Source: an uncultured Acidobacteriota bacterium
GTDB taxonomy: Bacteria > Acidobacteriota > Thermoanaerobaculia > Multivoradales > JAHEKO01
Reading direction: 5' to 3'
Length of the DNA: 64,000 bases
Assembly: GCA_963713825.1 (NCBI GenBank)
Contig: CAVQNG010000025.1
Span: 448,001-512,000, forward strand
Of the stretch, positions 13,396-34,349 are shown one piece after another. The notes under the pieces are model-generated. The model ran no database searches. It was given only the letters and a program-made list of their open reading frames with translations, and was not told the origin of the DNA. Every line of letters starts with the position of its first letter. Position 1 is the first letter of the stretch. Made by a program: the position numbers and the translations under genes.

Positions 13396-13545
13396 GATGA
13401 TAGGGGATGAGATCGAAGGGCCTCGCCGCCGCTACCCTGACATGGGCCCAGATCGCCGGTGAAGCCACCCAGAGTCTATGGCGATTGCGATCCGGGGCAC
13501 AAGCGAGGGGCCATTTGGCCGTTTCGGCTGGTCGCCTCGGGCGGG

Positions 13546-14055
13546 TTACTCGTCGAGGCCAGGCGTCAGCAGCAGTTTCGGTGAGACGAGCCAATGTAGC
13601 GTTCCGAGACCGGCTCTACACTCTGCCCAATCGTCGATCGGAAAATCGATCCTCGCCATGGCCGCCGTTGGCATTCGGGGTTGGCCTCCTCCCGTCAGCT
13701 CACCGACGAGCTCGGACCAGGTCGGCTCGTGTCCGACCAGGAGGATCCGTGAGAATATCGCCTCCTGGGCCTTGACCACGGAGAGCACGGTGGCAGGGTT
13801 CGATCCGTAGAACTCCTCGCAAAGCGCCATCGGACAGTCCCAACTGCCACTCTGGCTCGCGATTTCTGCGGTCGTGCGTGCCCGGACAGCCGTCGAGGAC
13901 AAGATCAGGTCGGGCTGGAGCTCGAGCTTTGCAAGGAAGCGTCCCATGAGACGGGCCGCGCTGACGCCCCGCTTGGCAAGGGGGCGCTCGTGATCCGATT
14001 CGAAGCTCGTTTTCCAGTCCGATTTGGCGTGCCGCAAGATCAGTAGTTGCTTCAA
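13546..14055 (-). CDS. sixA: SixA-family phosphohistidine phosphatase
   Basis: LRHAKS, RPL, SSTAVRARTTA and VGHEP motifs. TTG start with GGAG upstream. Confidence 0.88.
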   Translation of the reverse strand: MKQLLILRHAKSDWKTSFESDHERPLAKRGVSAARLMGRFLAKLELQPDLILSSTAVRARTTAEIASQSGSWDCPMALCEEFYGSNPATVLSVVKAQEAIFSRILLVGHEPTWSELVGELTGGGQPRMPTAAMARIDFPIDDWAECRAGLGTLHWLVSPKLLLTPGLDE

Positions 14056-14222
14056 GTGACGTACTCCCTTGTTCCGATCCGTCTGTTCTTGCACTCTATC
14101 CCAAGGCGGCGGCGAGCCCTGGCCTACCGACCGACCCTGCTGCCGCAAGGTTGGTAGAATCAACAGCTTGCCTCGATCGACGGACTCACTCGACGCAACG
14201 CCTGAAGGGATCTGAGCTGACG

Positions 14223-16376
14223 ATGACGGTGACGGAAGACAAGAAATCGGCCTCGAACAAGACTGCTGCCAAGGCGGTCAACCTCAATCACCGGATCTAC
14301 TACTTCAACCGCGAGTTGAGCTGGCTCCAATTCAATGATCGGGTGCTCGAGGAGGCGCTCGATGAGCGTCACCCCCTTCTCGAAAGGGTCAAGTTCCTCT
14401 CGATCTTCTCGAGCAACCTGGACGAGTTCTTCATGATCCGGGTCTCTGGCCTGCGACGTCAGCTGGCCGGAGGAGCCCTGAAGGCGCCGCCGGACGGTAT
14501 GTCACCTGGCGAGCAGTTGAAGGCGATTCGAAGCCGCCTCGATCCCGCCCTCGAAGAGGCCGCAGACTGTTGGAAAGACGAACTGCTCCCCCAACTGAAG
14601 GACGCCGGTGTCAACGTGCTTGCCTACGAAGAGCTCAAGAGCAAGCAGCGGAAGCTCTTGCGTAAGCACTTCAAGAGAGAGATCTTCCCGGTCCTGACCC
14701 CGCTGGCATTCGATCCAGGGCATCCGTTCCCGCATATTTCCAACCTGAGCGTCAACCTGGCGGCAGTCATCGACGATCCGGGTAGGGGAGAGAAGTTCGC
14801 CCGGGTCAAGGTGCCTCATATGTTCCCGCGGTTTGTCCGCGTTCCCAGCGAGGAGAAAGCCGGGCGTGACGAGGAACGGGGACTGGAAGGATCCGAATCG
14901 ATGAACTTCGTCTGGCTCGAGGAGGTCATCGCTGCCAATCTGGACACTCTCTTCCCGGGTCTGAACGTCGAAGCCGCCTACCCCTTCCGGGTGACCAGGG
15001 ATGCCGATGTGGAGATCGAGGAAGACGAAGCCTCGGACCTGCTGTCGGCCATGGAGGTCGTGGTGGGGCAGCGTCAGTTCGGCTCGGCGGTGCGGCTCGA
15101 GGTCGACGCTCGAATGCCGGCTCGTGTGAGGGATATTCTGGTCGACAACCTGGGGCTGTCGCGTTATCAAGTCTTTGCCGTGAACGGTCCTCTGGGTCAG
15201 TCGGATCTCATGGAGCTGACCAAGCTCGATCTACCCGCTTTGAAAGACGCTCCGTTTACACCGAGTGAACCCAAGGCGCTCAAAGGTGAGGAGAGTGTCT
15301 TCTCCGTTCTCAAACGGCGCAATCTGCTGCTCTATCACCCCTACGACAGCTTCCGTCCGGTGGTCGACTTTGTCCGCGAAGCGGCCAAGGACCCGGAAGT
15401 CCTGGCCATCAAGCAAACGCTGTATCGGGTCGGACCCAACTCGCCAATTGTGGAAGCGCTGCGGCATGCCAGGGAAAACGGCAAGCAGGTTTCAGTGCTC
15501 GTGGAGCTGAAGGCCCGCTTCGATGAAGAGAACAACATCGTCTGGGCGCGGTCCTTGGAAGAGGCCGGGGTGCATGTCGTCTACGGTGTGATGGGCCTCA
15601 AGACCCACGCCAAGATGTGCCTGGTGGTTCGGCGGGAGCCGGACGGGGTCAAACGCTACGTCCATCTGGGCACCGGCAACTACAACCCGGTCACGGCGCG
15701 CATCTACACAGACCAGGGATATCTGACTGCCGATGCCGACATAACGGCCGATGTTTCGGAGCTCTTCAATGCCCTGACGGGGTACTCCAGAGAGGATCAT
15801 TACCGCAAGCTGCTGGTGGCGCCCGGCAAGATGCGAGAACAGATCCTGGAGAGGATTCAGCGCGAGATCGACTGCCACCGAAAGGATGGCAACGGTCACC
15901 TGGCGTTCAAGATGAACTCCCTGGTCGACAAGGCCTGCATTCGGGCTCTGTACGAAGCGTCGATCGCCGGTGTCAAGGTGGATCTCCAGATCCGCGGCAT
16001 CTGTTGCCTACGCCCTGGGGTGGAGAGGATCAGCGAGAACATCACAGTCACCTCGATTGTCGGGCGATTTCTGGAACACAGCCGCATCTACTACTTCCGC
16101 AACGGCGGGCAGGAAGAGATCCTGCTAGGCAGTGCCGATCTGATGCCGCGGAATCTCGGCGGCAGGGTCGAAACCCTGTTCCCGGTCGAGGACGAGAGAT
16201 TGAAGCGAGCTCTGCGGGACGAGATCCTCGATCTCCATCTGCACGACAATGTGCAGTCCAGTCAGCTGATGAGCGATGGTGGGTACGTGCGCCTGAGTCC
16301 TGGCGAGGGCGACCCGGTCATCGACTCTCAGAGCCTGCTTCTGAAGCAGGCGGGCTCCTGGCACCTGGACGAGTAG
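14223..16376 (+). CDS. ppk1: Polyphosphate kinase 1
   Basis: NRELSWLQFN, SNLDEFFMIRV, HPFPHISN, HPYDSF, KQTLYR, ELKARFDEENN, KTHAK, TGNYN, GRFLEHSR and SADLMPRN motifs. Confidence 0.97.
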   Translation: MTVTEDKKSASNKTAAKAVNLNHRIYYFNRELSWLQFNDRVLEEALDERHPLLERVKFLSIFSSNLDEFFMIRVSGLRRQLAGGALKAPPDGMSPGEQLKAIRSRLDPALEEAADCWKDELLPQLKDAGVNVLAYEELKSKQRKLLRKHFKREIFPVLTPLAFDPGHPFPHISNLSVNLAAVIDDPGRGEKFARVKVPHMFPRFVRVPSEEKAGRDEERGLEGSESMNFVWLEEVIAANLDTLFPGLNVEAAYPFRVTRDADVEIEEDEASDLLSAMEVVVGQRQFGSAVRLEVDARMPARVRDILVDNLGLSRYQVFAVNGPLGQSDLMELTKLDLPALKDAPFTPSEPKALKGEESVFSVLKRRNLLLYHPYDSFRPVVDFVREAAKDPEVLAIKQTLYRVGPNSPIVEALRHARENGKQVSVLVELKARFDEENNIVWARSLEEAGVHVVYGVMGLKTHAKMCLVVRREPDGVKRYVHLGTGNYNPVTARIYTDQGYLTADADITADVSELFNALTGYSREDHYRKLLVAPGKMREQILERIQREIDCHRKDGNGHLAFKMNSLVDKACIRALYEASIAGVKVDLQIRGICCLRPGVERISENITVTSIVGRFLEHSRIYYFRNGGQEEILLGSADLMPRNLGGRVETLFPVEDERLKRALRDEILDLHLHDNVQSSQLMSDGGYVRLSPGEGDPVIDSQSLLLKQAGSWHLDE

Positions 16377-16411
16377 GGTCCGTCAGACCGTCGTCGAGTT
16401 GAGTTGACTCC

Positions 16412-17212
16412 TCAACCCTTGCCCTTGTCGCTCTTCTTCGAGCCCTTCTTCTTGTTGTTGTCGTTTTTTTCGTTTGCGGCAGCCCGTTGGGCCTCGGGCT
16501 CTTGCAGATTCGCTTCCAGAGCGGCGATCAGGGTCTCCTGGGTCTTGACCCTGGCCCACAGCTTGTCGTTGCCCTCGATGATGGTCCAGGGTGCGGAGAG
16601 GGTGCTGGTCTTCCTAAGCATGTCGATCAGGGCCTCTTCGTAGAGGCCCCACTTGCGTCGGTTTCGCCAGTCTTCTTCTGTGAGCTTCCACTGCTTGTGG
16701 GGTGTCTTGCGGCGAGCCTCGAAACGGCTGAGCTGCTCCTCGGCACTGATCTCGAACCACAGTTTGACGAGGATCATGCCGTGATCGGTGAGCTGGCGCT
16801 CGAAGTGGTTGATCTCTCGATAGGCTCGCTTCCACTCGTCTTCGGTGGCGAAACCTTCGACCCTCTCGACGAGAACACGTCCATACCAGGAGCGGTCGAA
16901 GATCACGATCTGCTTGTCGTCTGGGGATTTCAGGCGACGCCAGAAGCGCCAAAGGTAATGATGGGTCTTGTCCTCTCCATCCGGCGCTGCGATCGAGTAG
17001 ACCTCGTAGCCACGAGGGTCGATCTTTTCGGTCGCTCGCCGGATGGAACCCCCCTTTCCCGCCGCGTCCCACCCTTCCACGACGACGATCAGCGACCGCT
17101 TTTGCTGGTACAGCCTGAATGCCAACTCGCGGAGCTTGAGTTGACAGTCCAGCTTGCGCTGCCTGTACTCCTCGTGGTCCAATCGCTTACTCAGATCGAC
17201 TGTGGGGAGCAT
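16412..17212 (-). CDS. ppk2: Polyphosphate kinase 2 family protein (resembles the active C-terminal half of polyP:AMP phosphotransferase), Lys-rich tail
   Basis: EGWDAAGKGG, HYLWRFW, FDRSWYGRVLVERVEGF and WKLTEEDWRNR motifs. Confidence 0.92.
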   Translation of the reverse strand: MLPTVDLSKRLDHEEYRQRKLDCQLKLRELAFRLYQQKRSLIVVVEGWDAAGKGGSIRRATEKIDPRGYEVYSIAAPDGEDKTHHYLWRFWRRLKSPDDKQIVIFDRSWYGRVLVERVEGFATEDEWKRAYREINHFERQLTDHGMILVKLWFEISAEEQLSRFEARRKTPHKQWKLTEEDWRNRRKWGLYEEALIDMLRKTSTLSAPWTIIEGNDKLWARVKTQETLIAALEANLQEPEAQRAAANEKNDNNKKKGSKKSDKGKG

Positions 17213-17976
17213 CAGTAGTCTTCCTCATCGTCGTCGATCTCGTCGAAGCCGGGTACTTCGCAACCGTGGCGTTCCAGCCCCTCTTCCATGGCTTCGATGA
17301 TGGCCTGAAGGACCCGCACGCGTGTCCACCGGTGATCTGTTGCTGCGACCAGGGTCCATGGCCCCCATTCGGTCTCGGTTCTTTCGAGCATCTCCTCGAC
17401 CGCCAGCCGGTAGTCACCATAGCGCTCGTTCTGGGCCCAGTCCTCGGGCTCCACCTGCCAGCTGGTTCTGGGATCCGATTCCAAGTCCTTCAAACGGCTA
17501 GCCTGCTCCTTCTCGTCGATATGGAGAAAGAGCTTGGCCAGAAGATAGCGATCGTCGACCAGCGCCTGCTCGTAAGCCGTGATGTCGTTGTAGGCCTGCG
17601 TCAACTGCACCGGTTCGATCATGCCATCGACTCGCTCCTCCAGGACTCGGCCGTACCAGCTGTGGTCGAAGATGGCGATCTCGCCCCAGTTGGGCAGTTT
17701 GGCCCAGAAGCGCCACATCCAGGGTAGAAGGCTTTCGAAGGTGCGGGGCTCACGAATGGCGTGGAGACTGAAACCCCTCGGTTCCAGTCGCTGGGTGATC
17801 TTGCTGATGACCGAGCCCTTTCCAGACGCATCCCAGCCTTCCAGGACGACGAGCGTCGCCAACTTCTCCTTCCAGCAGGCGCGCTGCAATTGGTGAAGCC
17901 GGCGTTGGAGCTCTGGAAGCTGCTCCTTGTAGTCGGTCTTCGATAGCTCTCGGCTGAGATTTAGGGCTTCCAGCAT
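17212..17976 (-). CDS. ppk2: Polyphosphate kinase 2 family protein (resembles the N-terminal half of polyP:AMP phosphotransferase), acidic tail
   Basis: EGWDASGKGS, WRFW and FDHSWY motifs. TGATG overlap with the downstream ppk2. Confidence 0.88.
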   Translation of the reverse strand: MLEALNLSRELSKTDYKEQLPELQRRLHQLQRACWKEKLATLVVLEGWDASGKGSVISKITQRLEPRGFSLHAIREPRTFESLLPWMWRFWAKLPNWGEIAIFDHSWYGRVLEERVDGMIEPVQLTQAYNDITAYEQALVDDRYLLAKLFLHIDEKEQASRLKDLESDPRTSWQVEPEDWAQNERYGDYRLAVEEMLERTETEWGPWTLVAATDHRWTRVRVLQAIIEAMEEGLERHGCEVPGFDEIDDDEEDY

Positions 17977-18026
17977 TTCGGTTCAGCGACCGGTTCGTGA
18001 ACTGTTCAGCGTTCGGTTGGATTGTC

Positions 18027-18773
18027 TCATAGAGAGAGGCGACTGACGATCTCCGACCAGAGGGCTTCGTAGGCCCGGGTAGGCTCCGCTGATGGGGCGA
18101 AGGAGGGCAGAGGTGCACGACGCAATCCCATCTGCTCGACCAGGCTGGAGTACGGAATGGCTGTTTCGAGCATGTCCGGATGATGCTCGGTGGGTGAGGC
18201 GCAGATGCGTTTGTGGAGGGACTTGCGCCGGTCCACCATGCACAGGAACGGATAGAGTCGTGGCCGCGTGGCGCCCCTGTCGCGCAGATGCTGATCGAGT
18301 TGATCGAGCGTCCGCAATGAGAGCGTTGTCGGAATCGTTGGAGACAAGAGAACGTCTGCCGCGACGAAGATGCTCTCGGAGACCAGGGAGATGCTCGGAG
18401 CGCAATCGAGGAAGAGGTAGTCGTACTGCAACGAGAGGGGAAGCAGCAGGCTTGCCATCTGCCTGGTCGGCTTCTTGCTCTGCACCAGGTCCAGGTCCAT
18501 GTTGCGATAGGTGAAGTCGGCCGGCAAGATGTCGAGGCCCTCGAAATCCGTGCCCCGAATCGTCGCATCGAGGGGCCGCTTGCCTTTCAGGAGCTTCTTC
18601 GCACCGCCTTTTACTTTGGCTCGGACCCTGAAGTAGAAGGTGGCTGCAGCCTGGGGATCCAGGTCCCAAATCAACGTGCGGGCGCCGCCCCTGGCCGCCA
18701 GGTATGCCAGGTTGACCGCCGTCGCCGTCTTCCCGACCCCACCTTTGATGTTGTACGTGGCGAAGACCCTCAC
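18027..18773 (-). CDS. Orphan ParA/Soj-family ATPase
   Basis: KGGVGKT deviant Walker A, DLDPQ, LDCAPS and MVDRRK. GTGA overlap with the CHAD gene. No parB in the window. Confidence 0.92.
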   Translation of the reverse strand: MRVFATYNIKGGVGKTATAVNLAYLAARGGARTLIWDLDPQAAATFYFRVRAKVKGGAKKLLKGKRPLDATIRGTDFEGLDILPADFTYRNMDLDLVQSKKPTRQMASLLLPLSLQYDYLFLDCAPSISLVSESIFVAADVLLSPTIPTTLSLRTLDQLDQHLRDRGATRPRLYPFLCMVDRRKSLHKRICASPTEHHPDMLETAIPYSSLVEQMGLRRAPLPSFAPSAEPTRAYEALWSEIVSRLSL

Positions 18774-20347
18774 GCGGCCACCGTCTTCGTTGGCTTGAAG
18801 AGCGCCCGGAAACGGACCCGGTTCTTCTTGGAGGCGAACTTCGCGAACTCCTGCTGGAAGCGCTGTCGCTCCACCGCCTGCCGTGTCTCCAACCTGTCGA
18901 CCAGACGGCCCAATGCCATCAGGGTCTCCTCCGTGGCCAGGCCTTCCTGGAACATGTCGTGGGCAAAGCGCTGCAAACTGTCCTGTTGGACCTCCAGGTC
19001 GTTGAAGTCTCCCAGGTTGTCCTGCAGGCGCTTGAGCGCTTTGATGAGGGCCCCGATTTCGCGCTCGTCATAGAGGCTGCGGAAGAACTCGAGCAGATAA
19101 CGCAGCTTCTTGCAGTCGATTCGCAACCTGTGGAGCAGCTCTGGTGGGGCGTCGCTGCCGTTGACGCGACCCTGTTTGAGGACTTTGCGATAGGTCTTCC
19201 AGATGCGGGACGAGGCCGCACGCAAGATCGGCTCCTGCGCCAGGGGAGGAGCATCGGTCTCTGGAAGAGTCTCGTCCAGGAACGACTCCCAGTCTTGAAT
19301 CAATCGGGTGAACCGTTCTGAGTCCAGTTGCTCCACCAGCCTCGTATGCTCGAGGCGCTGGTGCCGGTTGAGGTACTCGTGCAGGGGTTCCAGGTGAGGT
19401 CCCAGGTGTTCGGGCAGGCTGTCGCGATACTCGGGCATCTTCAGGAGATAGACGTCGAGGTCACGATTGGTGCCGGTCGCCTGTCCGAGCCATGCGAACT
19501 CGCGCCTGAAGTGCTCGACGATGGGTGGCGGATAGACGTCCTTGATCTGAGTCAGGGCGGCTCGGGTACGACGAACGCCGACGCGGAAATCGTGCAAGAA
19601 CTCGGTGTCGAGGTCCTGTCGGAGGCCCGCCTCGTTGTTCTGGATCGCACTCAGCAGCGTCTTGTGAATCCGTTTCGAGGCTTCATCGCTGCGCATCTCG
19701 GGGGAGAGTCGGACCTCGAATCTCGAGGGGCCGGCGGTCGGATCCTCTCCCAGCAGATCCAGGGCCGTCATGAGCTGATCCGTCGGCGCCAGGGGAAGTT
19801 GTTGCTCGCGCTCCAGGTAAGCCAGGAGAGCCTTGAACTCCTTGGCGTACCCTCGTACCGGCTCTGCCGTCAGGACAGCGGGAAGCTCCAACGGCAGAGC
19901 TGTCGATTCCGGGCTGTTGACCGAGCCTTGGCTGAAATGAAGTCGCGCCACGGTCTTCTGGTTGCCGTCGAGGACGTGTAGCGTTTCTCCTCGGCTCGCA
20001 ATTTCCAAACGTGGCAACAAGCGCCGCATCTCCACCACAGATTCGAGCTCTGTCCTGAAGGGGCCTGGAGGGAGATCCCAAGCAAAACTGGGGCTGCTGT
20101 CGAGGCGGAGCCGAAAACGGGCTGGACCGTCCAAGGCGCTCCAGCGCAAGATCGTGGCTCGTGCATCCTTGGTGGAGAGGAGGCTTCCCCCATCTTTGAA
20201 GAGGCGCCAGTCAAAAGTGTCCAAGTAGGTGCCGCGAGTGTCTCGGTGAGTCTCGAGCCTTCCAGGGAACTGCTCTGCCGACGATTGGAGAACCGCCCGA
20301 CCTTGGCTCGGAGACTCGACTTGAAAGCTGATCGGGATCGGGTTCAT
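18770..20347 (-). CDS. CHAD-domain polyphosphate-binding protein with degenerate CYTH-like N-terminus
   Basis: YLDTFDWRL in the N-terminus. LHDFRVGVRRTR, RDLDV, LHRLRIDCKKLRYLLE and LQDNLGDFND in the CHAD domain. Confidence 0.92.
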   Translation of the reverse strand: MNPIPISFQVESPSQGRAVLQSSAEQFPGRLETHRDTRGTYLDTFDWRLFKDGGSLLSTKDARATILRWSALDGPARFRLRLDSSPSFAWDLPPGPFRTELESVVEMRRLLPRLEIASRGETLHVLDGNQKTVARLHFSQGSVNSPESTALPLELPAVLTAEPVRGYAKEFKALLAYLEREQQLPLAPTDQLMTALDLLGEDPTAGPSRFEVRLSPEMRSDEASKRIHKTLLSAIQNNEAGLRQDLDTEFLHDFRVGVRRTRAALTQIKDVYPPPIVEHFRREFAWLGQATGTNRDLDVYLLKMPEYRDSLPEHLGPHLEPLHEYLNRHQRLEHTRLVEQLDSERFTRLIQDWESFLDETLPETDAPPLAQEPILRAASSRIWKTYRKVLKQGRVNGSDAPPELLHRLRIDCKKLRYLLEFFRSLYDEREIGALIKALKRLQDNLGDFNDLEVQQDSLQRFAHDMFQEGLATEETLMALGRLVDRLETRQAVERQRFQQEFAKFASKKNRVRFRALFKPTKTVAA

Positions 20348-20363
20348 GACTCGGTACCGAAGG

Positions 20364-20741
20364 TCACTTGTGCTTCTTGCCTTTCCTCTTCTTCTTGCCT
20401 TTCCTCTTCTTCTTGTTCGTTCCCTTGCTTTTTCTCTGGTCCTTCTTCTTCTTGCCGTCAGACTTCTTATTACTCTTCTTGCCGCCCTTTTTCTTTTTCG
20501 CCTTCTTGTCCTTCTTTTTCGACTTGCTGGTCGATTCAGTGACCTCGGGCGAAGGCTGCCGCGATCGAAGGATGGCTTGGCCGATCGCCGCCGCTCTCGC
20601 CGTACCGAAACCAGGGAGGGAGGCCAGCTCTTGGGGTGAGAGTGCGGCCAACGCTTCCACGGTCTCGATACCGTTGCCGGCCAGAACCTGGGCGGTGTGC
20701 GGACCGATTCCGGGTATGTCGGTGACTTTGGCTTGACCCAT
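20364..20741 (-). CDS. Small double helix-hairpin-helix protein with a very Lys-rich C-terminal tail
   Basis: IPGIGPHTA and LPGFGTARA HhH motifs. About 30 Lys in the last ~55 aa. GGAGG RBS. Confidence 0.85.
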   Translation of the reverse strand: MGQAKVTDIPGIGPHTAQVLAGNGIETVEALAALSPQELASLPGFGTARAAAIGQAILRSRQPSPEVTESTSKSKKKDKKAKKKKGGKKSNKKSDGKKKKDQRKSKGTNKKKRKGKKKRKGKKHK

Positions 20742-20892
20742 AGCTCTTCCTCCAGTCCCTCCCCTGTTCGACAGAGGAGTTTACAACGGCAGATTCAAAG
20801 GGGGCGAAGAATGCCCTCGTTGCCTCTAGCCTAGTAGCCCAAGGTTCCGGCTGCAGCGAGATTTCTCTCACGGCCGAGGCGCGAGCCTCAGT

Positions 20893-21678
20893 CTAGCCGT
20901 ACCGGCCTTCGATGTAGTCGGCTGTCTCCTGATGCGCCGGCGTCACGAAGAGCTCTTCCGTGGGCGTGTGCTCGATCACCTTGCCCAACAGCATGAAAAT
21001 GCACTCCTCGCTTGCTCGACGAGCCTGGGCCATGTTGTGCGTGACGATGAGGATGGTGTATTCGCCACGCAGCTCCCAGATGAGCTCTTCCACTGCCTCC
21101 GTCCCCGTCGGGTCGAGAGCCGAGCAGGGCTCGTCCATCAGCAGTACGGCTGGTTTGACGGGCAGGAGTCTTGCGATGCAGAGCTTCTGCTGCTCTTCGA
21201 GAGAAAGCTCGATGGCGGGTCGATCCAACCGGTCCTTGACCGTTTCCCAGAGCAGGACCTCCCGGAGCGCCTTCTCGACGATCTCGTCCCGTTCACTAGT
21301 CGAGATCTTCTGGCTTCCCTTGGCGAGACGGTAGCCGAAGATCACGTTCTGCCGGATCGATAGGGGCAGAGGGTTCGGCCTCTGGAACACCATGCCGATG
21401 TGTTGGCGGACCTGACCGAGATCTACCTCGGGTCCGTAGATGTCGTGGCCGAGGACCAGGATGCTGCCCGTCGTCCTCACATACCCCAGGCGTTCGTTGA
21501 TTCGGTTGACGCTGCGCAAGAAAGTCGTCTTGCCACAGCCCGAGGGTCCGATCATCGAAGTGATGATGCCTTGCTTGATCTCGAGATCGATGTCGTACAG
21601 CGCCTGGAAGGTGCCGTACCAGAGGTTCAGCTTCTCGGTCTCGATGGCGAGTGCCTCTGTGGGCGGCCCGTTATCCAA
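20893..21678 (-). CDS. pstB: Phosphate ABC transporter ATPase PstB, degenerate signature motif
   Basis: [30 protein letters not shown] and YIEGRYG. The signature reads LSLEEQQ. TTG start at 21678. Confidence 0.9.
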   Translation of the reverse strand: MDNGPPTEALAIETEKLNLWYGTFQALYDIDLEIKQGIITSMIGPSGCGKTTFLRSVNRINERLGYVRTTGSILVLGHDIYGPEVDLGQVRQHIGMVFQRPNPLPLSIRQNVIFGYRLAKGSQKISTSERDEIVEKALREVLLWETVKDRLDRPAIELSLEEQQKLCIARLLPVKPAVLLMDEPCSALDPTGTEAVEELIWELRGEYTILIVTHNMAQARRASEECIFMLLGKVIEHTPTEELFVTPAHQETADYIEGRYG

Positions 21679-22459
21679 AACGGCCCTCCACATAGGCCTG
21701 AGTGCGTTCGTCGCTCGCCTTGCGGGTGAATAGATCTTCGGTGTCGGCCACTTCGACCAGCTCACCCATGAGAAAGAACGCCGTTCGATCAGCCAACCGG
21801 CGCGCCTGCTGCACCAGGTTGGTGACCAGGACGATGGTTACCTCCTCTTTGAGGACCTTGAGGACGTCTTCGATGCGCATGGTCGTAACCGGGTCGATGG
21901 CGATGGAGAACTCATCCAGCAGCAGCAGGTCCGGATCCTGGGACAGCGCTCGAGCGATGGTCAAGCGCTGCTGTTGGCCGCCCGAAAGCAGGCTGCCGAG
22001 GGAGTTGAGCCGGTCCTTGACCTCGTCCCAGAGAGCCGCTCGCTGGAGGCACCGCTCGACGATCTCGTCGAGCACGGCTTTCTTCTTGACTCCGCTCAGG
22101 CGTGGCGCCAGGGAGACGTTGTCGTAGATGGTCATCGGGAGGCCGACGGGAAGAGGGAAAACGACACCGATGTGACGGCGCAAGGCGTAGACATTGCGCC
22201 ACTTGTCGACGTCACGGCCATCGAAGCGTATGGTCCCATCGACTCTCATTCCGGGCGTGAAGAGATCCATCCGATTCAGGGCTCGCAAGAAGGAGGTCTT
22301 GCCGCTGTTGGCCGGTCCGATGATGCCGAAGATCTCGTTCTCTCGGATATCCAGGCTCACGTCCTCAAGGGCGATCTTCTGCCCGTAGCGGATGGTCAGA
22401 TTCCTGACTTCCACTTTGGGCCTAGCGTCACCCGGCTGGGAGGCGGTCTGTCCTACCAC
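21671..22459 (-). CDS. pstB: Phosphate ABC transporter ATPase PstB, degenerate Walker A, Q-loop and H-loop
   Basis: [37 protein letters not shown] and YVEGRFG. Confidence 0.9.
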   Translation of the reverse strand: MVGQTASQPGDARPKVEVRNLTIRYGQKIALEDVSLDIRENEIFGIIGPANSGKTSFLRALNRMDLFTPGMRVDGTIRFDGRDVDKWRNVYALRRHIGVVFPLPVGLPMTIYDNVSLAPRLSGVKKKAVLDEIVERCLQRAALWDEVKDRLNSLGSLLSGGQQQRLTIARALSQDPDLLLLDEFSIAIDPVTTMRIEDVLKVLKEEVTIVLVTNLVQQARRLADRTAFFLMGELVEVADTEDLFTRKASDERTQAYVEGRFG

Positions 22460-23322
22460 TTCTTCTTACCTCGGAGATACATGCGAAAGCCGATCGACAC
22501 GGCGTTCATGGCGAGGACCATGCCGATGAGCACGAGGGCGACACCGAAAGGCATCGCCTCCGGGACGCCCGGAACCTGCGTCGAGATCACGAACAGGTGA
22601 AGCGACATGGCCATGGTCTGATCGAACACGCTCTGCGGCAGGAATGGAAGGAAGAACGCCGCACCGGTGAACATGATGGGCGCTGTCTCGCCTGCGGTCC
22701 TCGAGACTTCGAGGATGACGCCGGTGAGGATACCGCTGATCGAATTGGGCAGCACGACGTGGCGAATGGTCTGCCATCGGCTGGCGCCCATGTTCCAGCA
22801 GGCTTCCCGGAAGGCATGCGGTACCGCCTGTAGCGATTCACGCGTCGCCACGATGACGACGGGCAGGGTCATGATGGCCAGGGTCAGGCTGGCGGCGAGG
22901 ATGCTCGTGCCGAAACGGAAGAACAGGACGAAGGCACCAACCCCGAAGAGCGCGTGAACAATGGAGGGAACCCCCGCCAGGTTGATGATCGCCAGGTTGA
23001 TCATCCGGGTCAGCCAGTTGTCCGGAGCGTACTCGCTGAGATAGAGGGCCGCGGCGACCCCGACGGGAACCGACGCCAGCAGTGCTACCGCAACCAGCCA
23101 GATGGTTCCCACGAGAGCTGGAAAGATCCCTCCCGCCGTCATCCCGTCCTTGGGCTCGGTGAAGAGAAAGTCGACGGAGATGATGGGTCCACCTTTGTAG
23201 ACCAGCACGCCAAGGATCACCAGGACCGGCAGGATGAGCAAGACCGTCATCAGGAGGAACAGCAGGCCCCACAGGCGCTCCACCTTGTGATTGCGGATGT
23301 TGAGCTCGGTGGCCTCGAACAC
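22453..23322 (-). CDS. pstA: Phosphate ABC transporter permease PstA
   Basis: GGIFPALVGT, YLSEY, NLAGVPSIV and RTAGETAP motifs. Confidence 0.93.
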   Translation of the reverse strand: MFEATELNIRNHKVERLWGLLFLLMTVLLILPVLVILGVLVYKGGPIISVDFLFTEPKDGMTAGGIFPALVGTIWLVAVALLASVPVGVAAALYLSEYAPDNWLTRMINLAIINLAGVPSIVHALFGVGAFVLFFRFGTSILAASLTLAIMTLPVVIVATRESLQAVPHAFREACWNMGASRWQTIRHVVLPNSISGILTGVILEVSRTAGETAPIMFTGAAFFLPFLPQSVFDQTMAMSLHLFVISTQVPGVPEAMPFGVALVLIGMVLAMNAVSIGFRMYLRGKKKW

Positions 23323-23333
23323 GACGTCAAGCC

Positions 23334-24248
23334 CTATTTCTTGCGGATCCCGCGGACAACCAGATCGGCTGTCAGATTGATGATGAAGGTGATGAGAAAC
23401 AGGAAGATTCCCAGCGTGAAGAGGGCTCGGTAGTGGTCCGATCCCACGGCCGTCTCACCGAGCTCGGCTGCGATGGTGGCGGTCAGCGCCCTGACCGAGT
23501 CGAAGATACTGGTGGGTAGATTGATCGAGTGGCCGCTGGCCATCAGGACTGCCATCGTTTCGCCGAAGCCCCTACCCACGCCCAGCAGCACCGCGGCGAC
23601 GAGACCATTCTTGGCGGCTGGAATCACTACCCTGAGGATGACCTGCCAGCGTGTCGCACCCATGGCCTCTGCGGCTTCCCGATAGGTGTCGGGTACGGCC
23701 TTGAGCGAGTCCTCGGCAATCGTGGTCATGATCGGGGCAGCCATCAGTCCGAGAATGAACCCGGCATTGAGCACGTTCAAGCCCACCGGCACGTTGAAGA
23801 GCTTGATGATCAGGGGATTCATGATGCTCAGTCCGATGAAACCCCAGACCACGGACGGGATGGCGGCCAGCAGCTCCACCAGCACCTTGAGGACTTCTCT
23901 GGTCTTGCCGGTGGCGAACTCTCCGATGTAGATCGCCGCGCCAAGAGAAAAGGGTACCGCCACCAACATCGCCAGTCCGGTAACGCTGGCTGTGCCCGCA
24001 ATCAGCGCTAGCGCACCGTAGGTCGGATTGTGCTCAGAGGTGGGTCGCCAGCGTGGCGAAGTGAAGAATTCGGCAATATCGAATCGGCCGAGGAGAAAGG
24101 GAAGGCCCTCCTTCGTGATAAAGACGAAGATGCCGATGATGAAGATGATGGCCGACACTCCGCCGACGAAGACAAGAACCTGCACTGCCTTGTCGATGTA
24201 CCAAGCAAGGTCACGACGGTCGAGGTCGGCACCAGGAGGATGGCTCAG
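23334..24248 (-). CDS. pstC: Phosphate ABC transporter permease PstC
   Basis: ELLAAIPSVVWG, GRGFGETMAV and LTATIAAELGE motifs. The frame is open up to a CTG at 24248 overlapping the phoU stop (CTGA), with GGAGG 7 nt upstream. The alternative start is GTG 24185. Confidence 0.92.
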   Translation of the reverse strand: MSHPPGADLDRRDLAWYIDKAVQVLVFVGGVSAIIFIIGIFVFITKEGLPFLLGRFDIAEFFTSPRWRPTSEHNPTYGALALIAGTASVTGLAMLVAVPFSLGAAIYIGEFATGKTREVLKVLVELLAAIPSVVWGFIGLSIMNPLIIKLFNVPVGLNVLNAGFILGLMAAPIMTTIAEDSLKAVPDTYREAAEAMGATRWQVILRVVIPAAKNGLVAAVLLGVGRGFGETMAVLMASGHSINLPTSIFDSVRALTATIAAELGETAVGSDHYRALFTLGIFLFLITFIINLTADLVVRGIRKK

Positions 24249-25336
24249 GTCGCGCCCTCCCCGCGAAGCGTCTCCATGAGCTCACGAATCGAGTGCTTGA
24301 GATTCTGGAATGCCTCTTCCATCAGCGCCGCGGATCGTTCGGCGTCGAGATCGCTGGGAATGGGATCGATATCCCACTCGAGAAGTACTGTGCGAAACGG
24401 GGTCTCTTCAATTCGGGAGCCGGAGCCTTTGCCTACAGCGACGATGACGTGAAAATCGGCCAACTGGTCCACGGTGTGGTCCAGTCTCTTCGGAGAGAGT
24501 GAGTCTCCATCCAGGCCCCGGGCGTCCATGAACACCTCGGTGGCGGGCAGCAGACGATCTGCCGGGGCCCAGCCGGCGCTCTGATAGACACCGCCGTCGG
24601 GAAAAGCCTTGCGAGCGAATGCTTCTGCCAGCTGGCTCAAGGCATCATTACGTTCGTCGAAGAAGAGGATCCGGTATACCTTCTCACTCTTGGTCTCGCC
24701 GGCAACAGCGAAGAGGGTGTCCTCACAGATGTTCTTGGACTGATCGGCCACTCGGCCGATGCGGTTGAAGATCACCAGCGTAGCGAAGAGATCCCGGATG
24801 GGTCTGGCGCCCGCTTCACCTTCCTGGAGCAGATCTCGGAAGACCTTCTGGTAGGTGCTCTCGATCTGGCTCGCCATTCCCTTGGTGCCTCTGGCAAGCT
24901 CTGGGTTCTGCGTGTTGAACGACTCCATGGCCTGGCGAAACATGCGCTGAGCCTGGTCGGCGATCAACTGGACGTCGCTGGCAACCGAGCCACTGGGGAC
25001 CGTTGACAACTGAATCGCTTCCCGGGCTATGGCTACCGCGTAGTCTCCGATTCTCTCGAGCTCGACGTCCAAACGCAGCACTGAAGAGACGAACCGTAGG
25101 TGCCCCGCACTCGGCAGGTGGCGGGCTATGAAGCCATAGCAGAGCTTGTCGATCGTCCGAATTTCTCGATTGATGGGCTTGTCGCCCATGACAACCTGAT
25201 TCGCCAGAGCTCGATCGAGCTTCAGGGCCGATCGCACGGCTCTCTCGAGGGCCGTTTCGACCTGTTCGCCAACCTCTTCGATGCGCTCGCGAATCGCAGC
25301 GAGGTCCTCTTCCAGACGTTTCTCGTAGTGGGTCAT
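24245..25336 (-). CDS. phoU: PhoU fused to a catalytically degenerate LMW-PTP/ArsC-like domain
   Basis: PhoU repeats (LERIGDYA, RVADQSKNICE), then ILFFDERNDALSQLAEAFA...SAG...FHVIVAV...WDIDP. Confidence 0.85.
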   Translation of the reverse strand: MTHYEKRLEEDLAAIRERIEEVGEQVETALERAVRSALKLDRALANQVVMGDKPINREIRTIDKLCYGFIARHLPSAGHLRFVSSVLRLDVELERIGDYAVAIAREAIQLSTVPSGSVASDVQLIADQAQRMFRQAMESFNTQNPELARGTKGMASQIESTYQKVFRDLLQEGEAGARPIRDLFATLVIFNRIGRVADQSKNICEDTLFAVAGETKSEKVYRILFFDERNDALSQLAEAFARKAFPDGGVYQSAGWAPADRLLPATEVFMDARGLDGDSLSPKRLDHTVDQLADFHVIVAVGKGSGSRIEETPFRTVLLEWDIDPIPSDLDAERSAALMEEAFQNLKHSIRELMETLRGEGAT

Positions 25337-25366
25337 GGCCTTGCGACCCCTTTCTTCTCAGCGACC

Positions 25367-26251
25367 TCAGCCGCAGGTGACAGTCCGAACTGGAGCGTAT
25401 CCCTTTTCCTGAATGATGCACTGGCCCTCGTCACTCAGGATCCAGTCGAGGTATTCCTTGATGGCTCCCTCGGGTTGCCCCGAGGTGTACATGAAGAGCG
25501 GGCGGGCGATGGGATACGTGCGATCGATGGCGGTCGCGACAGAGGGTGCGATGCAATCACTGCCCTCCTCCGCAGCGACACAGGGCATCTTCACCTCGTG
25601 GGTCGCATAGGCCAGGCCACTGTAGCCGATTGCGCAAGGTGTGTTCAGGACCAGATCTACGACGTCCTTGGACCCGTGCATGTCTCGAGAGCCCATCTTG
25701 TAGTCGCGCCCCCTGCCGAGCACGGCTTCCTTGAAGTACACGTAAGTCCCGGAGTTGTTCTGACGACTGACGCGGACGATCTCGTTGCTGTCGCATCCGG
25801 GAATCTCGACCCCGATCTGATCCCAGGACTCGACGGGTCCTTCCTCACCGTAGATGTCGGCCAGCTGGGCCAGCGTGAAGCTCTCGACCGGATTGTCGGT
25901 GTGCAGGAAGACGGCCAGGGCGTCATAGCCAACCGTCCACTCCACTGGCTCGATACCGTTGGCCCGAGCCATCTCGAACTCCTTGTCCTTCATCTTCCGG
26001 CTGGCATTGGCAATGTCCACCGTGCCGTTGATCATGGACGAGATCCCGGTTCCGGAACCGCCGCCCGTCACCGCGACCGCCACGTTCGGGTTGACCTCCT
26101 TGTACTCCTCGGCCCAGGCCTGGGCCACGTTGACGAGGGTGTCGGAGCCCTTGTTCTGGATCACGCCTCGTCCGCCTCTGCTTCCATCCTGGCTCCTGGG
26201 GCCGCATGCGGCCAGTGCTAGCAAGACGACCAAAGTCCAGTACTTGTTCAT
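25367..26251 (-). CDS. pstS: Phosphate-binding lipoprotein PstS
   Basis: Lipobox LAAC. KGSDT, GGGSGTG, NASR, SRQNNSGT and YPIARPLF motifs. AGGAG RBS. Confidence 0.93.
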   Translation of the reverse strand: MNKYWTLVVLLALAACGPRSQDGSRGGRGVIQNKGSDTLVNVAQAWAEEYKEVNPNVAVAVTGGGSGTGISSMINGTVDIANASRKMKDKEFEMARANGIEPVEWTVGYDALAVFLHTDNPVESFTLAQLADIYGEEGPVESWDQIGVEIPGCDSNEIVRVSRQNNSGTYVYFKEAVLGRGRDYKMGSRDMHGSKDVVDLVLNTPCAIGYSGLAYATHEVKMPCVAAEEGSDCIAPSVATAIDRTYPIARPLFMYTSGQPEGAIKEYLDWILSDEGQCIIQEKGYAPVRTVTCG

Positions 26252-26363
26252 GATCAGCTCTCCTTGATTGTGTCTCGATATGGGTGTGGAACTCTCGATG
26301 GGTTTGAATCGGTTCGAGACACCGGCCGCAGTTCTGGTCTCGACCGAAGCCGGGTCCATCGGA

Positions 26364-26397
26364 ACTCTAGACGAAGCCTGTGACATTCGTGTGACAG
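26364..26397 (-). promoter_or_regulatory. Pho box plus -10 element upstream of the pstS-phoU-pstCABB operon
   Basis: CTGTCAC-ACGA-ATGTCAC (11-bp period), followed 10 nt later by TAGAGT. Confidence 0.8.
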
Positions 26398-26445
26398 GTT
26401 TCCATATCGAAATTCAGCTTCGCCTTCACCTCCAGTCAGAGTTGG

Positions 26446-27357
26446 TCAGTTGTCACACTCGAGTCGTCGGGAGGTGGCGTAGCCTACCTCTTCGAGGATG
26501 CATTGACCCGCGTCGCTCAAGACCCAGTCCAAGTAGGTCGCCACCGCTCCGGTCGGTCGGCCCTTGGTCACCATCATGAGAGGACGGGACAACGGGTAGG
26601 TGCCGTCTTCGGCGCTCTCCATCGAAGGGGTCACGCACGACCCGGCCTCTTCGATGGCAAAACAAGGCATTCTGACTTCGGTCGGTGGAACATAGGCCAG
26701 GGCGGTGTAGCCGAGTGCGCATGGAGTCTTGGCGACTGCTTCAACCACCTCACGTGACCCTTGCAGGTCGCGCGAGCCGAGCTTGTATTCCCGTGCAGGG
26801 CCGAGAATCTCTGTGCGGAGGAACTCGTAGGTTCCGGAGCTACTCTGGCGGCTGATGCGGACAATCTCATCGCTGGGGCAGCCGGGCACCGTCACTCCGA
26901 GTTGACTCCAAGTGTCGATGGGCCCTTCCTCGCCGAGGATCTCGGCTAACCGTTGGGCCGTCAGCGAGTCGACAGGGTTGTCCGGGTGAACGATGAACGC
27001 GGGTGCGTCGAACCCGACAATCGTCTCGACCGGAGTGAATCCAGAGGTCTCCGCCGCGTCGAACTCGCTTGGCTTGAGACGCCGCGTCGCGTTGGCAATG
27101 TCGACGGTTCCGTTGGTCAGTCCCGCAATCCCGTGTCCAGAACCGCCTCCAGATACGGAGACGCCCGGATGCGATTCCGCTGCAGAAAACCGCTCTGCCC
27201 ACACCAGAGCAACGATCACCATCGAGTCCGAGCCGGCGTTCCGGATCGTCGCCCGCTGGTCCAGAGGATTCACCGGTTGCCGACTGCACCCAGCGAGCGA
27301 ACCGAGTAGCAGTCCCTGACACAAGACCAGCGATGCGAAGCAGCGAGCCTTCCCCAT
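26446..27357 (-). CDS. pstS: Second, divergent PstS-family binding lipoprotein
   Basis: Lipobox LAGC. AGSDS, GGGSGHG, NATR, SRQSSSGT and YPLSRPL motifs. Clear paralog of the adjacent PstS. Confidence 0.85.
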   Translation of the reverse strand: MGKARCFASLVLCQGLLLGSLAGCSRQPVNPLDQRATIRNAGSDSMVIVALVWAERFSAAESHPGVSVSGGGSGHGIAGLTNGTVDIANATRRLKPSEFDAAETSGFTPVETIVGFDAPAFIVHPDNPVDSLTAQRLAEILGEEGPIDTWSQLGVTVPGCPSDEIVRISRQSSSGTYEFLRTEILGPAREYKLGSRDLQGSREVVEAVAKTPCALGYTALAYVPPTEVRMPCFAIEEAGSCVTPSMESAEDGTYPLSRPLMMVTKGRPTGAVATYLDWVLSDAGQCILEEVGYATSRRLECDN

Positions 27358-27522
27358 GTATCCCTCCAGTGATCACCCGGTCCTCCCGTCGCGGATCAGG
27401 CGTCGTTGGTACTAGAATCCGACTGCACCAGAGCCTTCGACCGGGCATCCTGGGTCTCGAGGAATTCATGTTACTGCCGATGACGCCAATCTGCCACCCG
27501 TTGGGTCCAGGAGGCTTGCACA

Positions 27523-28668
27523 GTGCGAGACGCCGCAGCCACCAGTAGGGGTGTGGCAGCCGATGCCGCCCATCTCGAACGCTCCTCCCTGGCGCTTCGA
27601 CTGATTCTGCTGGGCGCCCTGCTGTTCGGGTTCTTTGTGGGCCTGGACATGATGGGCCTGTCGTTCAAGCTCTTTGGAAAGGGCTTTGCCGAGGGCTTGA
27701 TCGAGAGAACCTCCAACCCATTCGTCGGCCTCTTCGTCGGGATACTCGCCACGACCCTTGTCCAAAGCTCTTCCACAACCACGTCCATGATCGTGGCCCT
27801 GGTGGCTGCGGGGGCTCTGACCATCGAAGGTGCCATCCCGATGGTGATGGGTGCGAACATCGGCACATCGGTGACCAACACGTTGGTCTCGTTGGCTCAC
27901 GTGACGCGTCGCGAGGAGTTCCAAAGAGCTTTTGCCGGCGCCACCGTGCACGATTTCTTCAACTGGTTGGCGGTCTTGATCCTGTTGCCTCTCGAATTGG
28001 CGACAGGGTATCTGGCTCGCTCTGCGGCTTTCTTCGAGACCGTGCTGGAGGGAGCTGGGGGATTTAGACTGTTCGACCCCTTGAAAGCGGCGGTCAGGCC
28101 CGTCTCTTCGGGGCTGGCAGAGTTGTTCGGCAATTCCGGAATCTTGGTTCTCATCGTCGGAGTCGGTCTACTGATCGCCAGCTTGAAGTTCCTGGTGGAT
28201 CTCCTCAAGGTACTGATGACCGGGCGGGCCGAGGCAACGCTTCACCGCACCCTATTCCGCTCCGCAATGGCGGCCGCAACAGCTGGTTTGGTGGTAACCG
28301 TCATGGTCCAAAGCAGCTCGATTACGACGTCGCTGATGGTGCCGCTGGTCGGCGCCGGGGTCGTGACACTCGAGCAGGTCTTCCCGTTTACCATCGGTGC
28401 CAATGTCGGCACCACCGTGACGGCCATGTTGGCCGCCCTGTCGACGGGCAGCCCCGCTGCCGTCAGTGTCGCGCTGTCGCATTTGATCTTCAATCTCAGC
28501 GCCGCGGTGTTGATTTATGTGCCCAAGCCGATCCGCGCCATTCCGCTGACCCTGGCGAAAGCGCTGGGCAAGATGGCGGCCAGAAACCGACTCTTGGCAG
28601 CCGCCTACATCCTGGTCTTCTTCTTCGGGCTGCCGATCTTGCTACTGTTGTTGACAGGAGCCCTTTGA
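27523..28668 (+). CDS. Na+/Pi cotransporter (NptA/SLC34-like)
   Basis: Two inverted QSSS repeats (LVQSSSTTTS, MVQSSSITTS) with GANIGT/GANVGT. The start may be GTG 27553. Confidence 0.92.
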   Translation: MRDAAATSRGVAADAAHLERSSLALRLILLGALLFGFFVGLDMMGLSFKLFGKGFAEGLIERTSNPFVGLFVGILATTLVQSSSTTTSMIVALVAAGALTIEGAIPMVMGANIGTSVTNTLVSLAHVTRREEFQRAFAGATVHDFFNWLAVLILLPLELATGYLARSAAFFETVLEGAGGFRLFDPLKAAVRPVSSGLAELFGNSGILVLIVGVGLLIASLKFLVDLLKVLMTGRAEATLHRTLFRSAMAAATAGLVVTVMVQSSSITTSLMVPLVGAGVVTLEQVFPFTIGANVGTTVTAMLAALSTGSPAAVSVALSHLIFNLSAAVLIYVPKPIRAIPLTLAKALGKMAARNRLLAAAYILVFFFGLPILLLLLTGAL

Positions 28669-28697
28669 CTCGAGAGAGCTTTCGTAGGAGAACTTCC

Positions 28698-30607: not shown

Positions 30608-30615
30608 GAGTCGAT

Positions 30616-31827: not shown

Positions 31828-31870
31828 TCGCTCACCCGCCCTTGCTTGCGCCTGCCTCGGAGCCGCCCGT

Positions 31871-33184: not shown

Positions 33185-33191
33185 ATCGTTG

Positions 33192-34118: not shown

Positions 34119-34151
34119 GAGGCGGCGCGATGCTAGCACTCTTCGCCCTGT

Positions 34152-34283
34152 TGAGGACAAGAAGAAACCCCCACCGGAGCTGGGGGGAGGCCAGTGTGAA
34201 GTCTCCGGCGGGGCTGGTAAACACCTGGGAGGTATTACCATGTGTAGTCTCTTCCGGTGACGGGGCGATGAGGTGAAGAGACA
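34152..34283 (-). ncRNA. Candidate structured RNA (three hairpins with C-rich loops, ending in an intrinsic terminator)
   Basis: Stems GTCTCTTC/GAAGAGAC, GGTAATACCT/AGGTGTTTACC and CCCCGCCGGAG/CTCCGGTGGGG, followed by GTTTCTTCTT. Confidence 0.45.
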
Positions 34284-34301
34284 GTGACAGCAGAGTGACA
34301 A
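34273..34301 (-). promoter_or_regulatory. Pho box between ppx and eamA-phoH2
   Basis: TTGTCAC-TCTG-CTGTCAC-TGTC-TCTTCAC, 11-bp period. Confidence 0.7.
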
Positions 34302-34349
34302 CAGCCTTCGGGGGTCGTCCGCCCCGCGCGAAAGGGATATAAAGGCACC

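Follow-up and report, generated by a model that had tools for sequence, protein, structure and literature searches.

A CHAD protein and a ParA-family ATPase as a candidate organiser of polyphosphate granules in an uncultured Acidobacteriota bacterium

How bacteria place their polyphosphate (polyP) granules and share them between cells is an open question, for which we describe here a concrete and testable pair of proteins, a CHAD protein and a ParA-family ATPase encoded by overlapping genes in a 64,000-nucleotide stretch of DNA from an uncultured Acidobacteriota bacterium (hereafter the window). In P. aeruginosa, the histone H1-like tail of AlgP is needed for even spacing of polyP granules, according to the available text of PMC9239181. 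A 2025 review, in the sections available, enters “AlgP/?” for the spacing component and marks ATP dependence as unknown, and the accessible part of a 2026 paper on S. elongatus states that the positioning mechanism is yet to be discovered and that spacing is independent of McdAB. A term search of the available text of a 2024 review of ParA/MinD ATPases found no mention of polyphosphate, and a full-text literature search yielded no proposal of ParA for polyP granules among the matches examined, themselves available in part. The linkage of parA to CHAD has already been drawn for Acidithiobacillus, without a granule-positioning reading: ppk, parA and CHAD genes, the same three gene types as here, lie together there, and one paper calls the group highly conserved (PMC10892726, PMC6416229; available parts). 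Both texts take the ParA for a protein that partitions plasmids or chromosomes, one of them (PMC6416229) takes the CYTH-CHAD protein for an adenylate cyclase, and no proposal of granule positioning was found in the available parts of either.

We compared the window pair with five further kinds of described system. It resembles McdA-McdB in that an orphan ParA-family ATPase is encoded beside a non-ParB partner for a non-DNA cargo, with even spacing of a storage or metabolic body as the proposed outcome. It differs in that the partner is a folded protein with a CYTH-like and a CHAD domain, whereas McdB-type partners are disordered, in that the predicted contact is a globular domain interface, in that the canonical DNA-binding arginine is missing from the ATPase, and in that ATPase-adaptor fusions exist. 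Like the ParABS systems (Soj-Spo0J; M. xanthus ParA), the window ParA has the deviant Walker A, motif 2 and Walker B, but it has no adjacent parB, falls in a separate clade, is predicted to meet its partner off the ParB pocket and has Leu at the position of R238. The CYTH-CHAD proteins and phosins (YgiF, C. tepidum CHAD, PptA) are the relatives of the partner, which keeps the two-domain architecture of YgiF and the binding residues of the C. tepidum protein (CtCHAD); unlike them, it no longer has ExExK in its CYTH half, where K-T and R-G-Y loop motifs that accompany the ParA clade have been acquired. A third gene of the locus, for a helix-hairpin-helix (HhH) protein with a polylysine tail (HhH-polyLys), recalls AlgP in joining a DNA-binding element to a Lys-rich disordered tail beside polyP genes. 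[quoted passage not shown] PhaM, PhaF and PhaH likewise are granule-binding proteins with a basic DNA-binding part that distribute storage granules (PMC13052382, available part); no ATPase is known there in that text, whereas an ATPase is the conserved partner in the window module.

The initial annotation of the window, made from its letters, had described five co-oriented genes with gaps of 16, -4, 50 and -1 nt and had read them as one granule-segregation machine. The open reading frame (ORF) listing and Pfam matches reproduce the layout exactly, on the minus strand and in the order HhH-polyLys, CHAD protein, ParA, PPK2, PPK2, with the GTGA overlap of the CHAD and parA genes visible in the sequence. 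The genes and their parts are:

20364..20741, minus strand: HhH-polyLys protein, 125 aa (ORF; Pfam HHH_5, E 1.4e-13)
~20562-20741, minus strand: double helix-hairpin-helix, N-terminal part of HhH-polyLys
~20367-20528, minus strand: Lys-rich tail of HhH-polyLys
18770..20347, minus strand: CHAD protein, 525 aa (ORF; Pfam CHAD, E 5.1e-62)
19748..20347, minus strand: N-terminal domain of the CHAD protein, residues 1-200, degenerate CYTH/triphosphate-tunnel fold, predicted ParA-docking module (AlphaFold2 and Foldseek)
18797..19690, minus strand: CHAD domain, residues ~220-517, polyphosphate-binding module (Pfam, phmmer, Foldseek)
18027..18773, minus strand: ParA/MinD-family ATPase, 248 aa, GTG start (Pfam AAA_31, E 5.5e-30; CbiA, E 1.4e-12)
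18726-18746, minus strand: Walker A of ParA
18576-18629, minus strand: clade-specific polybasic loop of ParA, residues 49-66
17212..17976, minus strand: PPK2, single-domain, 254 aa, acidic C-terminus (Pfam PPK2, E 2.6e-65)
16412..17212, minus strand: PPK2, single-domain, 266 aa, Lys-rich C-terminus, 1-nt overlap with the preceding PPK2 (Pfam PPK2, E 8.6e-85)

To relate the neighbourhood of parA in other genomes to that of the window, we divided the ParA proteins of 40 relatives by score into likely orthologues (E <= 5.5e-50, at least 41% identity) and paralogs (E >= 1e-33, at most ~33% identity over the full length). In 18/20 likely-orthologue loci (17/19 when genome G006 is left aside), the gene directly upstream of parA, on its strand, encodes a CHAD protein. 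A scan with one genome per species gave 162 ParA relatives, and neighbourhoods were counted in the best 80 of these, of which 5 are the same contigs as in the set of 20. The CHAD reading frame ends at the ParA start in 79/80 loci, the remaining locus having no upstream DNA, and the overlap of CHAD stop and ParA start is exactly 4 nt in 63/80. These 80 loci come from metagenome-assembled genomes (MAGs) of Thermoanaerobaculia and other Acidobacteriota, from many Actinomycetota, from MAGs of Gamma-, Delta- and Alphaproteobacteria and from one Eremiobacterota MAG; the actinomycetotal carriers include Streptosporangiaceae, Trebonia, a Saccharomonospora strain, Prauserella oleivorans, Mycolicibacterium wolinskyi and Acidimicrobiales. 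Since the CHAD-ParA pair recurs across phyla, its arrangement is not due to chance. ParA relatives at E <= 1e-30 fall into 441 representative clusters in a library of 1.84 billion representative proteins.

We also sampled 301 Acidobacteriota genomes evenly. Of these, 119 encode CHAD proteins, namely 17/17 genomes with the ParA clade vs 102/284 others, and the 13 best matches to the window CHAD protein are all in ParA-clade genomes; as the sampled genomes are related, these counts overstate independence. In 10 of 13 further Acidobacteriota loci that we fetched, a CHAD protein is encoded upstream of ParA. One complete genome with a solo ParA (G130) encodes a full-length CHAD protein of the window type 1.2 Mb away, beside ppk1 and pstB, so the two genes can be separated in a genome without loss of either. 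In this separated pair (L167, G130:C1:2640000-2647600, and L123), the CHAD protein keeps the ParA-contact motifs described below. In actinobacterial loci the sole conserved neighbour of the pair is a pfkB sugar kinase gene, which we took as lineage synteny. As the other genes are far less conserved, we regard the two genes as the conserved unit and the five-gene operon as a lineage-specific elaboration. Thus the linkage of this ParA clade to CHAD that the initial annotation had anticipated is indeed conserved across phyla, while linkage to HhH-polyLys and PPK2 is lineage-limited and linkage to ppk1 recurs in Acidobacteriota, and its five-gene machine shrinks to a two-gene module; its interpretation is partly supported, right in the core and wrong in extent.

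ParA and the CHAD protein were modelled as a 1:1 complex. The complex scores were 0.82, 0.81 and 0.82, and all three controls scored 0.00; the mark applied to this score was reached by 58/80 solved complexes vs 2/110 mismatched pairs, a rough calibration for which our own alignments were used. The runs share at least 96% of contacts, with a partner predicted local distance difference test (pLDDT) value of at least 86. The predicted complex supports binding of ParA to the CHAD protein, as the initial annotation had supposed in naming the latter a candidate adaptor, with the difference that the contact falls on the CYTH-like N-domain and not on the CHAD domain: loops 78-81, 94, 129-132 and 164-167 face ParA residues 28-30, 48-51, 72-81 and 219. 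We know of no solved structure of a ParA-CYTH complex.

The contact residues are strongly kept on both sides, in the adaptor at K131 (43/44 sequences), G166 (44/44) and Y167 (42/44), and in ParA at R49 (43/44), D76 (44/44), D81 (43/44) and R219 (43/44). They are also specific to the pair. Both the window protein and the unlinked protein of G130 have K131-T132 and R165-G166-Y167, and the K-T and R-G-Y motifs are missing in 14/14 homologues with a CYTH-like and a CHAD domain fetched from genomes without the ParA clade, one of which has a paralog-level ParA gene divergently upstream. On the other side, R49 occurs in 0/24 ParA paralogs and D76 in 1/24, and both are kept in the CYTH- and CHAD-fused forms of ParA. 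The interface thus fits three independent observations, namely the conservation of the contacts, their specificity and the natural fusions. K131, R165 and Y167 of the adaptor and R49 and D76 of ParA offer residues to mutate, and cultured organisms appear to carry the pair (Prauserella oleivorans, the Saccharomonospora strain and a Mycolicibacterium species).

To survey fusions, we took the best 120 longer ParA relatives, of which 19 match CYTH, 19 match CHAD, 11 carry an SBP_bac_3-like domain and 71 have only ParA-type Pfam matches; in at least 1 of these 71, a C-terminal extension without ExExK is colinear with the CYTH of a fusion. The domain orders are ParA-linker-CYTH and N-domain-CHAD-ParA. 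Some of the CHAD-ParA fusions may be artefacts, produced by an indel where stop and start overlap, an explanation that does not extend to the ParA-CYTH fusions, whose domain order cannot arise in that way. One locus (L031) has no CHAD, and a stand-alone gene for a canonical CYTH protein comes after ParA and overlaps it by 4 nt; ExExK is kept in this protein and in the ParA-CYTH fusions, which have no CHAD. At another (L108:6381-8768), CHAD and ParA share one frame of 795 aa, with a frame change just before the CHAD C-terminus; we left it uncounted, since the fusion may be genuine or may stem from an indel in a long-read assembly. A sister group (P0054, P0063, P0074 and others) carries a C-terminal fusion with weak likeness to SBP_bac_3 periplasmic solute-binding proteins. 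In this sister form D76, F48, I72, K73 and G74 are changed and R49 is kept; in P0054, the one member examined, most ParA residues predicted to contact CYTH are absent. The likeness of an N-terminal extension before the ParA part of P0010 to the window N-domain was not significant (E 0.83).

The CHAD protein, of which the genome has a single gene, was modelled with AlphaFold2 at a pLDDT of 93.4, and the full-length protein matches E. coli YgiF in Foldseek (1.2e-11). Residues 1-200 form a beta-barrel that matches structures of triphosphate tunnel metalloenzymes (TTM/CYTH; Foldseek E ~1e-4, probability 1.00). As the barrel fold is kept while a Pfam CYTH match (none in the N-domain even at E <= 10) and ExExK (absent from all 44 homologues of the CHAD protein) are missing, we regard the N-domain as a degenerate CYTH. 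The CHAD domain scores 210.3 bits (Pfam cut-off 25.6) and matches the C. tepidum CHAD structure 6qv7/6qva, determined from crystals with polyP (phmmer 1.3e-52; Foldseek TM 0.93, 36% identity). Mutation of H253, R256, R260, R296, R418 or Y419 of CtCHAD lowers polyP binding (PMC6537752, available part). These six residues correspond to H252, R255, R259, R295, R416 and Y417 of the window protein and are invariant in the 44 homologues. The numbering of the C. tepidum crystal structure (PDB 6qv7/6qva) differs from that of the window CHAD protein (18773-20347) by only 1-3, an offset small enough to suggest a similar N-terminal domain in the full-length C. tepidum protein.

ParA carries KGGVGKT at residues 10-16, and K10, G11, G12, V13, G14, K15 and T16 are invariant in 44 sequences, as are D37 and D39 of motif 2 and D123 of Walker B. 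DLDPQ, DCAP and MVDRRK, which the initial annotation had listed along with KGGVGKT, are all in the translation. The protein scores 105 bits against Pfam AAA_31 (cut-off 27) and 48.1 against CbiA (cut-off 25.4), and lies below the cut-off of every NCBIfam model; the next best ParA paralog in the genome is 33% identical. In a quick maximum-likelihood (ML) search, with long-branch warnings for L034, L131 and L132, a branch of length 1.26 with a support of 99 in the SH-like approximate likelihood ratio test (SH-aLRT) separated 57 clade rows from 25 paralogs, which include the Soj encoded beside parB; the window ParA is thus not that Soj, an outcome that favours the initial annotation, and rows without an adjacent CHAD gene nest inside its clade. 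In keeping with the orphan status first assigned to this ParA, ParB_N has no match on the window contig (C25); the matches in the genome are at C3:837050 and C1:392706, each beside another ParA paralog, making two parA-parB pairs elsewhere. PADLOC returned a P-loop match only, and with nothing beyond it a defence system was rejected. Within the clade, the loop at residues 49-66, which begins at the predicted CHAD-protein contact (48-51), holds 9 Lys/Arg in the window ParA, 7-9 in most CHAD-linked forms, 3-6 in ParA-CYTH fusions and 0-4 in paralogs.

Comparative analysis and structural prediction together leave the CHAD-ParA module well supported, and on them it would be a ParA cargo system with a new adaptor fold and a new cargo. 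We propose that the CHAD domain holds polyP and the degenerate CYTH N-domain a dedicated ParA-family ATPase, which would be made from the CHAD transcript through a start codon overlapping the CHAD stop. ATP-bound ParA dimers with the CHAD protein would link polyP granules to a matrix of polyanionic nature, for which the nucleoid is the likeliest candidate, and ATP hydrolysis would release granules from it, so that granules would be kept apart, spaced and shared between daughter cells. The HhH-polyLys protein would be an addition of this lineage that bridges DNA through HhH and polyP through the Lys tail, as is thought for AlgP. With the two PPK2 genes, ppk1 and pst adjoining the module, the synthesis, use and placement of granules would be encoded together. 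Of this proposal, the comparison shows the conserved gene pair, the distinct ParA clade, the intact residues for ATPase function and polyP binding and the natural fusions; the docking is predicted, and we infer the granules, the matrix and the ATP-dependent movement alike. An ATP-switched tether accords better with the stable interface and the fusions than does the transient contact of a ratchet. We consider the reading of the module as an organiser of polyP granules, taken as a whole, to be evenly poised between right and wrong. A wider claim, which we advance tentatively and would at present put a little short of even, is that there is a widespread and unrecognised ParA-CYTH partnership, in which a tunnel fold was turned into a ParA-docking domain that together with CHAD may form the first ATP-driven organiser of polyP granules, and in which the DNA-binding arginine was exchanged for a polybasic loop, so that the ATPase may ride a polyanion other than DNA, possibly polyP. 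If borne out, the module would bring both a novel type of cargo and a novel adaptor fold to the ParA/MinD systems.

Several observations weigh against the granule-organiser proposal. The closest solved relative of the window ParA is M. xanthus ParA (PDB 8RAY; profile E 7.3e-35), onto which it was mapped with a HMMER alignment and the residues named in the available part of PMC12462528, where R238 is the arginine needed for non-specific DNA binding. This residue aligns to Leu211 of the window ParA, and Arg occupies the column in 21/24 paralogs and in 0 of the clade rows examined. In B. subtilis Soj we take R189 to be the non-specific DNA-binding arginine. A search of the C-terminal 99 residues of ParA against solved structures, aimed at the DNA-binding lysines of H. 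pylori Soj, gave no match, so the mapping is limited to the M. xanthus arginine. With that canonical arginine lost, binding of the clade ParA to the nucleoid cannot be assumed. The comparison shows what appears to be a rebuilt matrix-binding surface; the matrix could be DNA bound in a new way, or polyP. The ParB-peptide pocket maps to ~94, 128, 130, 133, 165 and 170 of the window ParA, outside the predicted contact. The predicted interface gives no sign of a ParB-like activating contact, and nothing in the models speaks for the stimulation of ParA ATPase activity that had been suggested for the adaptor. A stable-looking interface and natural fusions are also unusual for diffusion-ratchet systems, where ATPase and adaptor meet transiently. 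The catalytic ExExK of the ParA-CYTH fusions hints at an enzyme-linked role in that branch. The ParA clade is sparse (17/301 genomes in the even sample of Acidobacteriota), and ParA stands alone in 3 of the 13 further Acidobacteriota loci. HhH-polyLys homologues, found immediately upstream of CHAD in the own genus and family as well as in L027, do not extend beyond the order, and the PPK2 pair and pst accompany the module only in the own genus and family, apart from L124, which adds one case of the PPK2 pair together with ppk1. For S. elongatus, a species in which the regular spacing of granules has been examined, McdA is reported to be the sole ParA-family ATPase in the part of the literature available, and granules have never been observed in the uncultured source organism of the window. 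Contigs from RNA libraries, few and short, give a weak hint of transcription.

Much of this evidence also bears on what else the module might be, the main rivals being a purely regulatory role and a polyP matrix. The loss of the DNA-binding arginine and the stable-looking interface away from the ParB pocket, together with the ExExK retained in ParA-CYTH fusions and the polyphosphate kinase genes adjoining the module in this lineage, would suit an ATP-gated regulator of polyP chemistry rather than of position, in which ParA dimerisation, as a report of the ATP level, would switch CYTH/CHAD activity, polyP access or recruited enzymes such as the neighbouring PPK2s; CHAD is known to enhance the polyphosphatase activity of YgiF (PMC6537752, available part). 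Against such a role, ExExK is gone from all 44 CHAD-linked sequences and Pfam CYTH does not match, so no catalytic centre would be left to regulate, and ppk/PPK2 linkage is absent from most of the best 80 of 162 loci. ParA/MinD ATPases with this motif set are, moreover, mostly positioning or assembly switches, and we consider the regulator unlikely.

The replaced arginine (in none of the clade rows vs 21/24 paralogs) can also be read together with the polybasic loop, which is dense in Lys/Arg in most CHAD-linked forms (7-9 vs 0-4 in paralogs) and starts at the predicted CHAD-protein contact, as pointing to the polyP granule surface itself as the matrix. The loop would then bind polyP, and ParA-ATP dimers would cross-link or coat granules via CHAD and control their fusion, size and number. 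Basic loops bind DNA equally well, however, the ParA-CYTH fusions have fewer basic residues there, and the HhH domain encoded alongside points to DNA as a component of the system in this lineage, which leaves this reading rather improbable. We disfavour, as very improbable, an ordinary partition ATPase (of a chromosome, a plasmid or an integrated element) that lies beside phosphate genes by chance. Two Acidithiobacillus papers do label the parA near ppk and CHAD as a partition gene (PMC10892726, PMC6416229; available parts), and Pfam and NCBIfam show only generic ParA-type domains, but the contig has no parB while two parA-parB pairs lie elsewhere in the genome, the ParA forms a separate clade, CHAD adjoins it across phyla in 79/80 of the best loci and in most of them overlaps it by 4 nt, there are fusions with CYTH and with CHAD, and PADLOC finds no defence-system match beyond the P-loop.

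Turning to the genes around the pair, the tail of the HhH-polyLys protein holds 31 Lys among its last 54 residues, in agreement with the roughly 30 first reported for this double-HhH protein. GGAGG stands 7 nt before its ATG, a good ribosome-binding site, and the genome holds one copy of the gene. Lys-rich or H1-like proteins adjoin the module in three unrelated forms, a parallel to AlgP that favours the granule proposal. One Acidobacteriota genome encodes a 108-aa histone-H1-like protein with AKKPAAKK directly upstream of CHAD-ParA (L122:7704-8027), and another encodes a 615-aa KPAA-repeat protein beside the ParA-CYTH pair (L031:11042-12886). The two PPK2s score 220.7 and 284.4 bits (Pfam cut-off 22.3) and are ~35% identical to each other, as judged from cross-matches in the loci of relatives. 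For both, the best match is to the two-domain polyP:AMP phosphotransferase, in its C-terminal half, and the scores lie below the cut-off of all NCBIfam equivalogs; the tandem PPK2s could be a split or heteromeric enzyme.

The operon is flanked by further phosphate genes:

14151..16376, plus strand: ppk1, 741 aa, convergent with the operon (four PPK1 Pfam domains)
20893..27357, minus strand: pst genes, namely two pstS, a PhoU-domain gene, pstC, pstA and two pstB (Pfam)
26380..26396, minus strand: Pho-box-like direct repeat TGTCAC-N5-TGTCAC (perfect match)

The stop codons of ppk1 and of the operon are 35 nt apart, which confirms the convergence noted in the initial annotation. ppk1 lies within a few kb of CHAD-ParA in L021-L024, L026, L033, L035, L073, L120, L122, L124 and L128, and in only 4/80 loci of the best 80 of 162, three from the own genus and one from a deltaproteobacterial MAG (L073). 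The pst gene order is conserved in relatives of the genus and family. A Pho-box-led pst operon had been placed upstream of the five genes; the pst genes and a perfect repeat are there, and the repeat does not lead the whole cluster, since it overlaps the listed start of the second tandem pstS. TGTCAC-N5-TGTCAC has two perfect matches in the 64 kb window, both at phosphate genes, and none before the HhH gene. The second (34284-34300; 34273-34300 with a third, imperfect half-site) is 50 nt upstream of ppx, between this gene and the divergent EamA and PIN-PhoH genes. The phosphate island as a whole (20893-36804) comprises two tandem pstS, a PhoU-domain gene of 363 aa, pstC, pstA, two pstB, a Na/Pi cotransporter that carries a PhoU of its own, a PIN-PhoH protein, an EamA transporter, an exopolyphosphatase of the Ppx/GppA type and another ABC ATPase.

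A scan of 13300-26500 for promoters and terminators gave fewer matches than shuffled sequence (1 vs 2.2 and 6 vs 9.2) and is uninformative on operon boundaries. Contigs from RNA libraries with exact identity to the window cover 17719-17976, in the 254-aa PPK2, and 16588-16812, in the 266-aa PPK2, and short contigs identical to PPK2 and ParA sequence are found in two metatranscriptome libraries. The HhH/CHAD and PPK2/PPK2 junctions are bridged by RNA-library contigs from relatives; the X20 contigs are 90-97% alike and therefore come from relatives. The three metatranscriptome runs cover small parts of the stretch only, uncovered stretches being uninformative, and such libraries may contain DNA. 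DNA nearly identical to 16412-20900 occurs in 17 metagenome runs of sediment, salt marsh and freshwater sediment from 13 studies. On the far side of ppk1 (10921-13395, minus strand), an 824-aa protein unites an ATP-cone and an AAA-type NTPase region with a metalloenzyme domain like that of cofactor-independent phosphoglycerate mutase, and it is conserved beside ppk1 in relatives.

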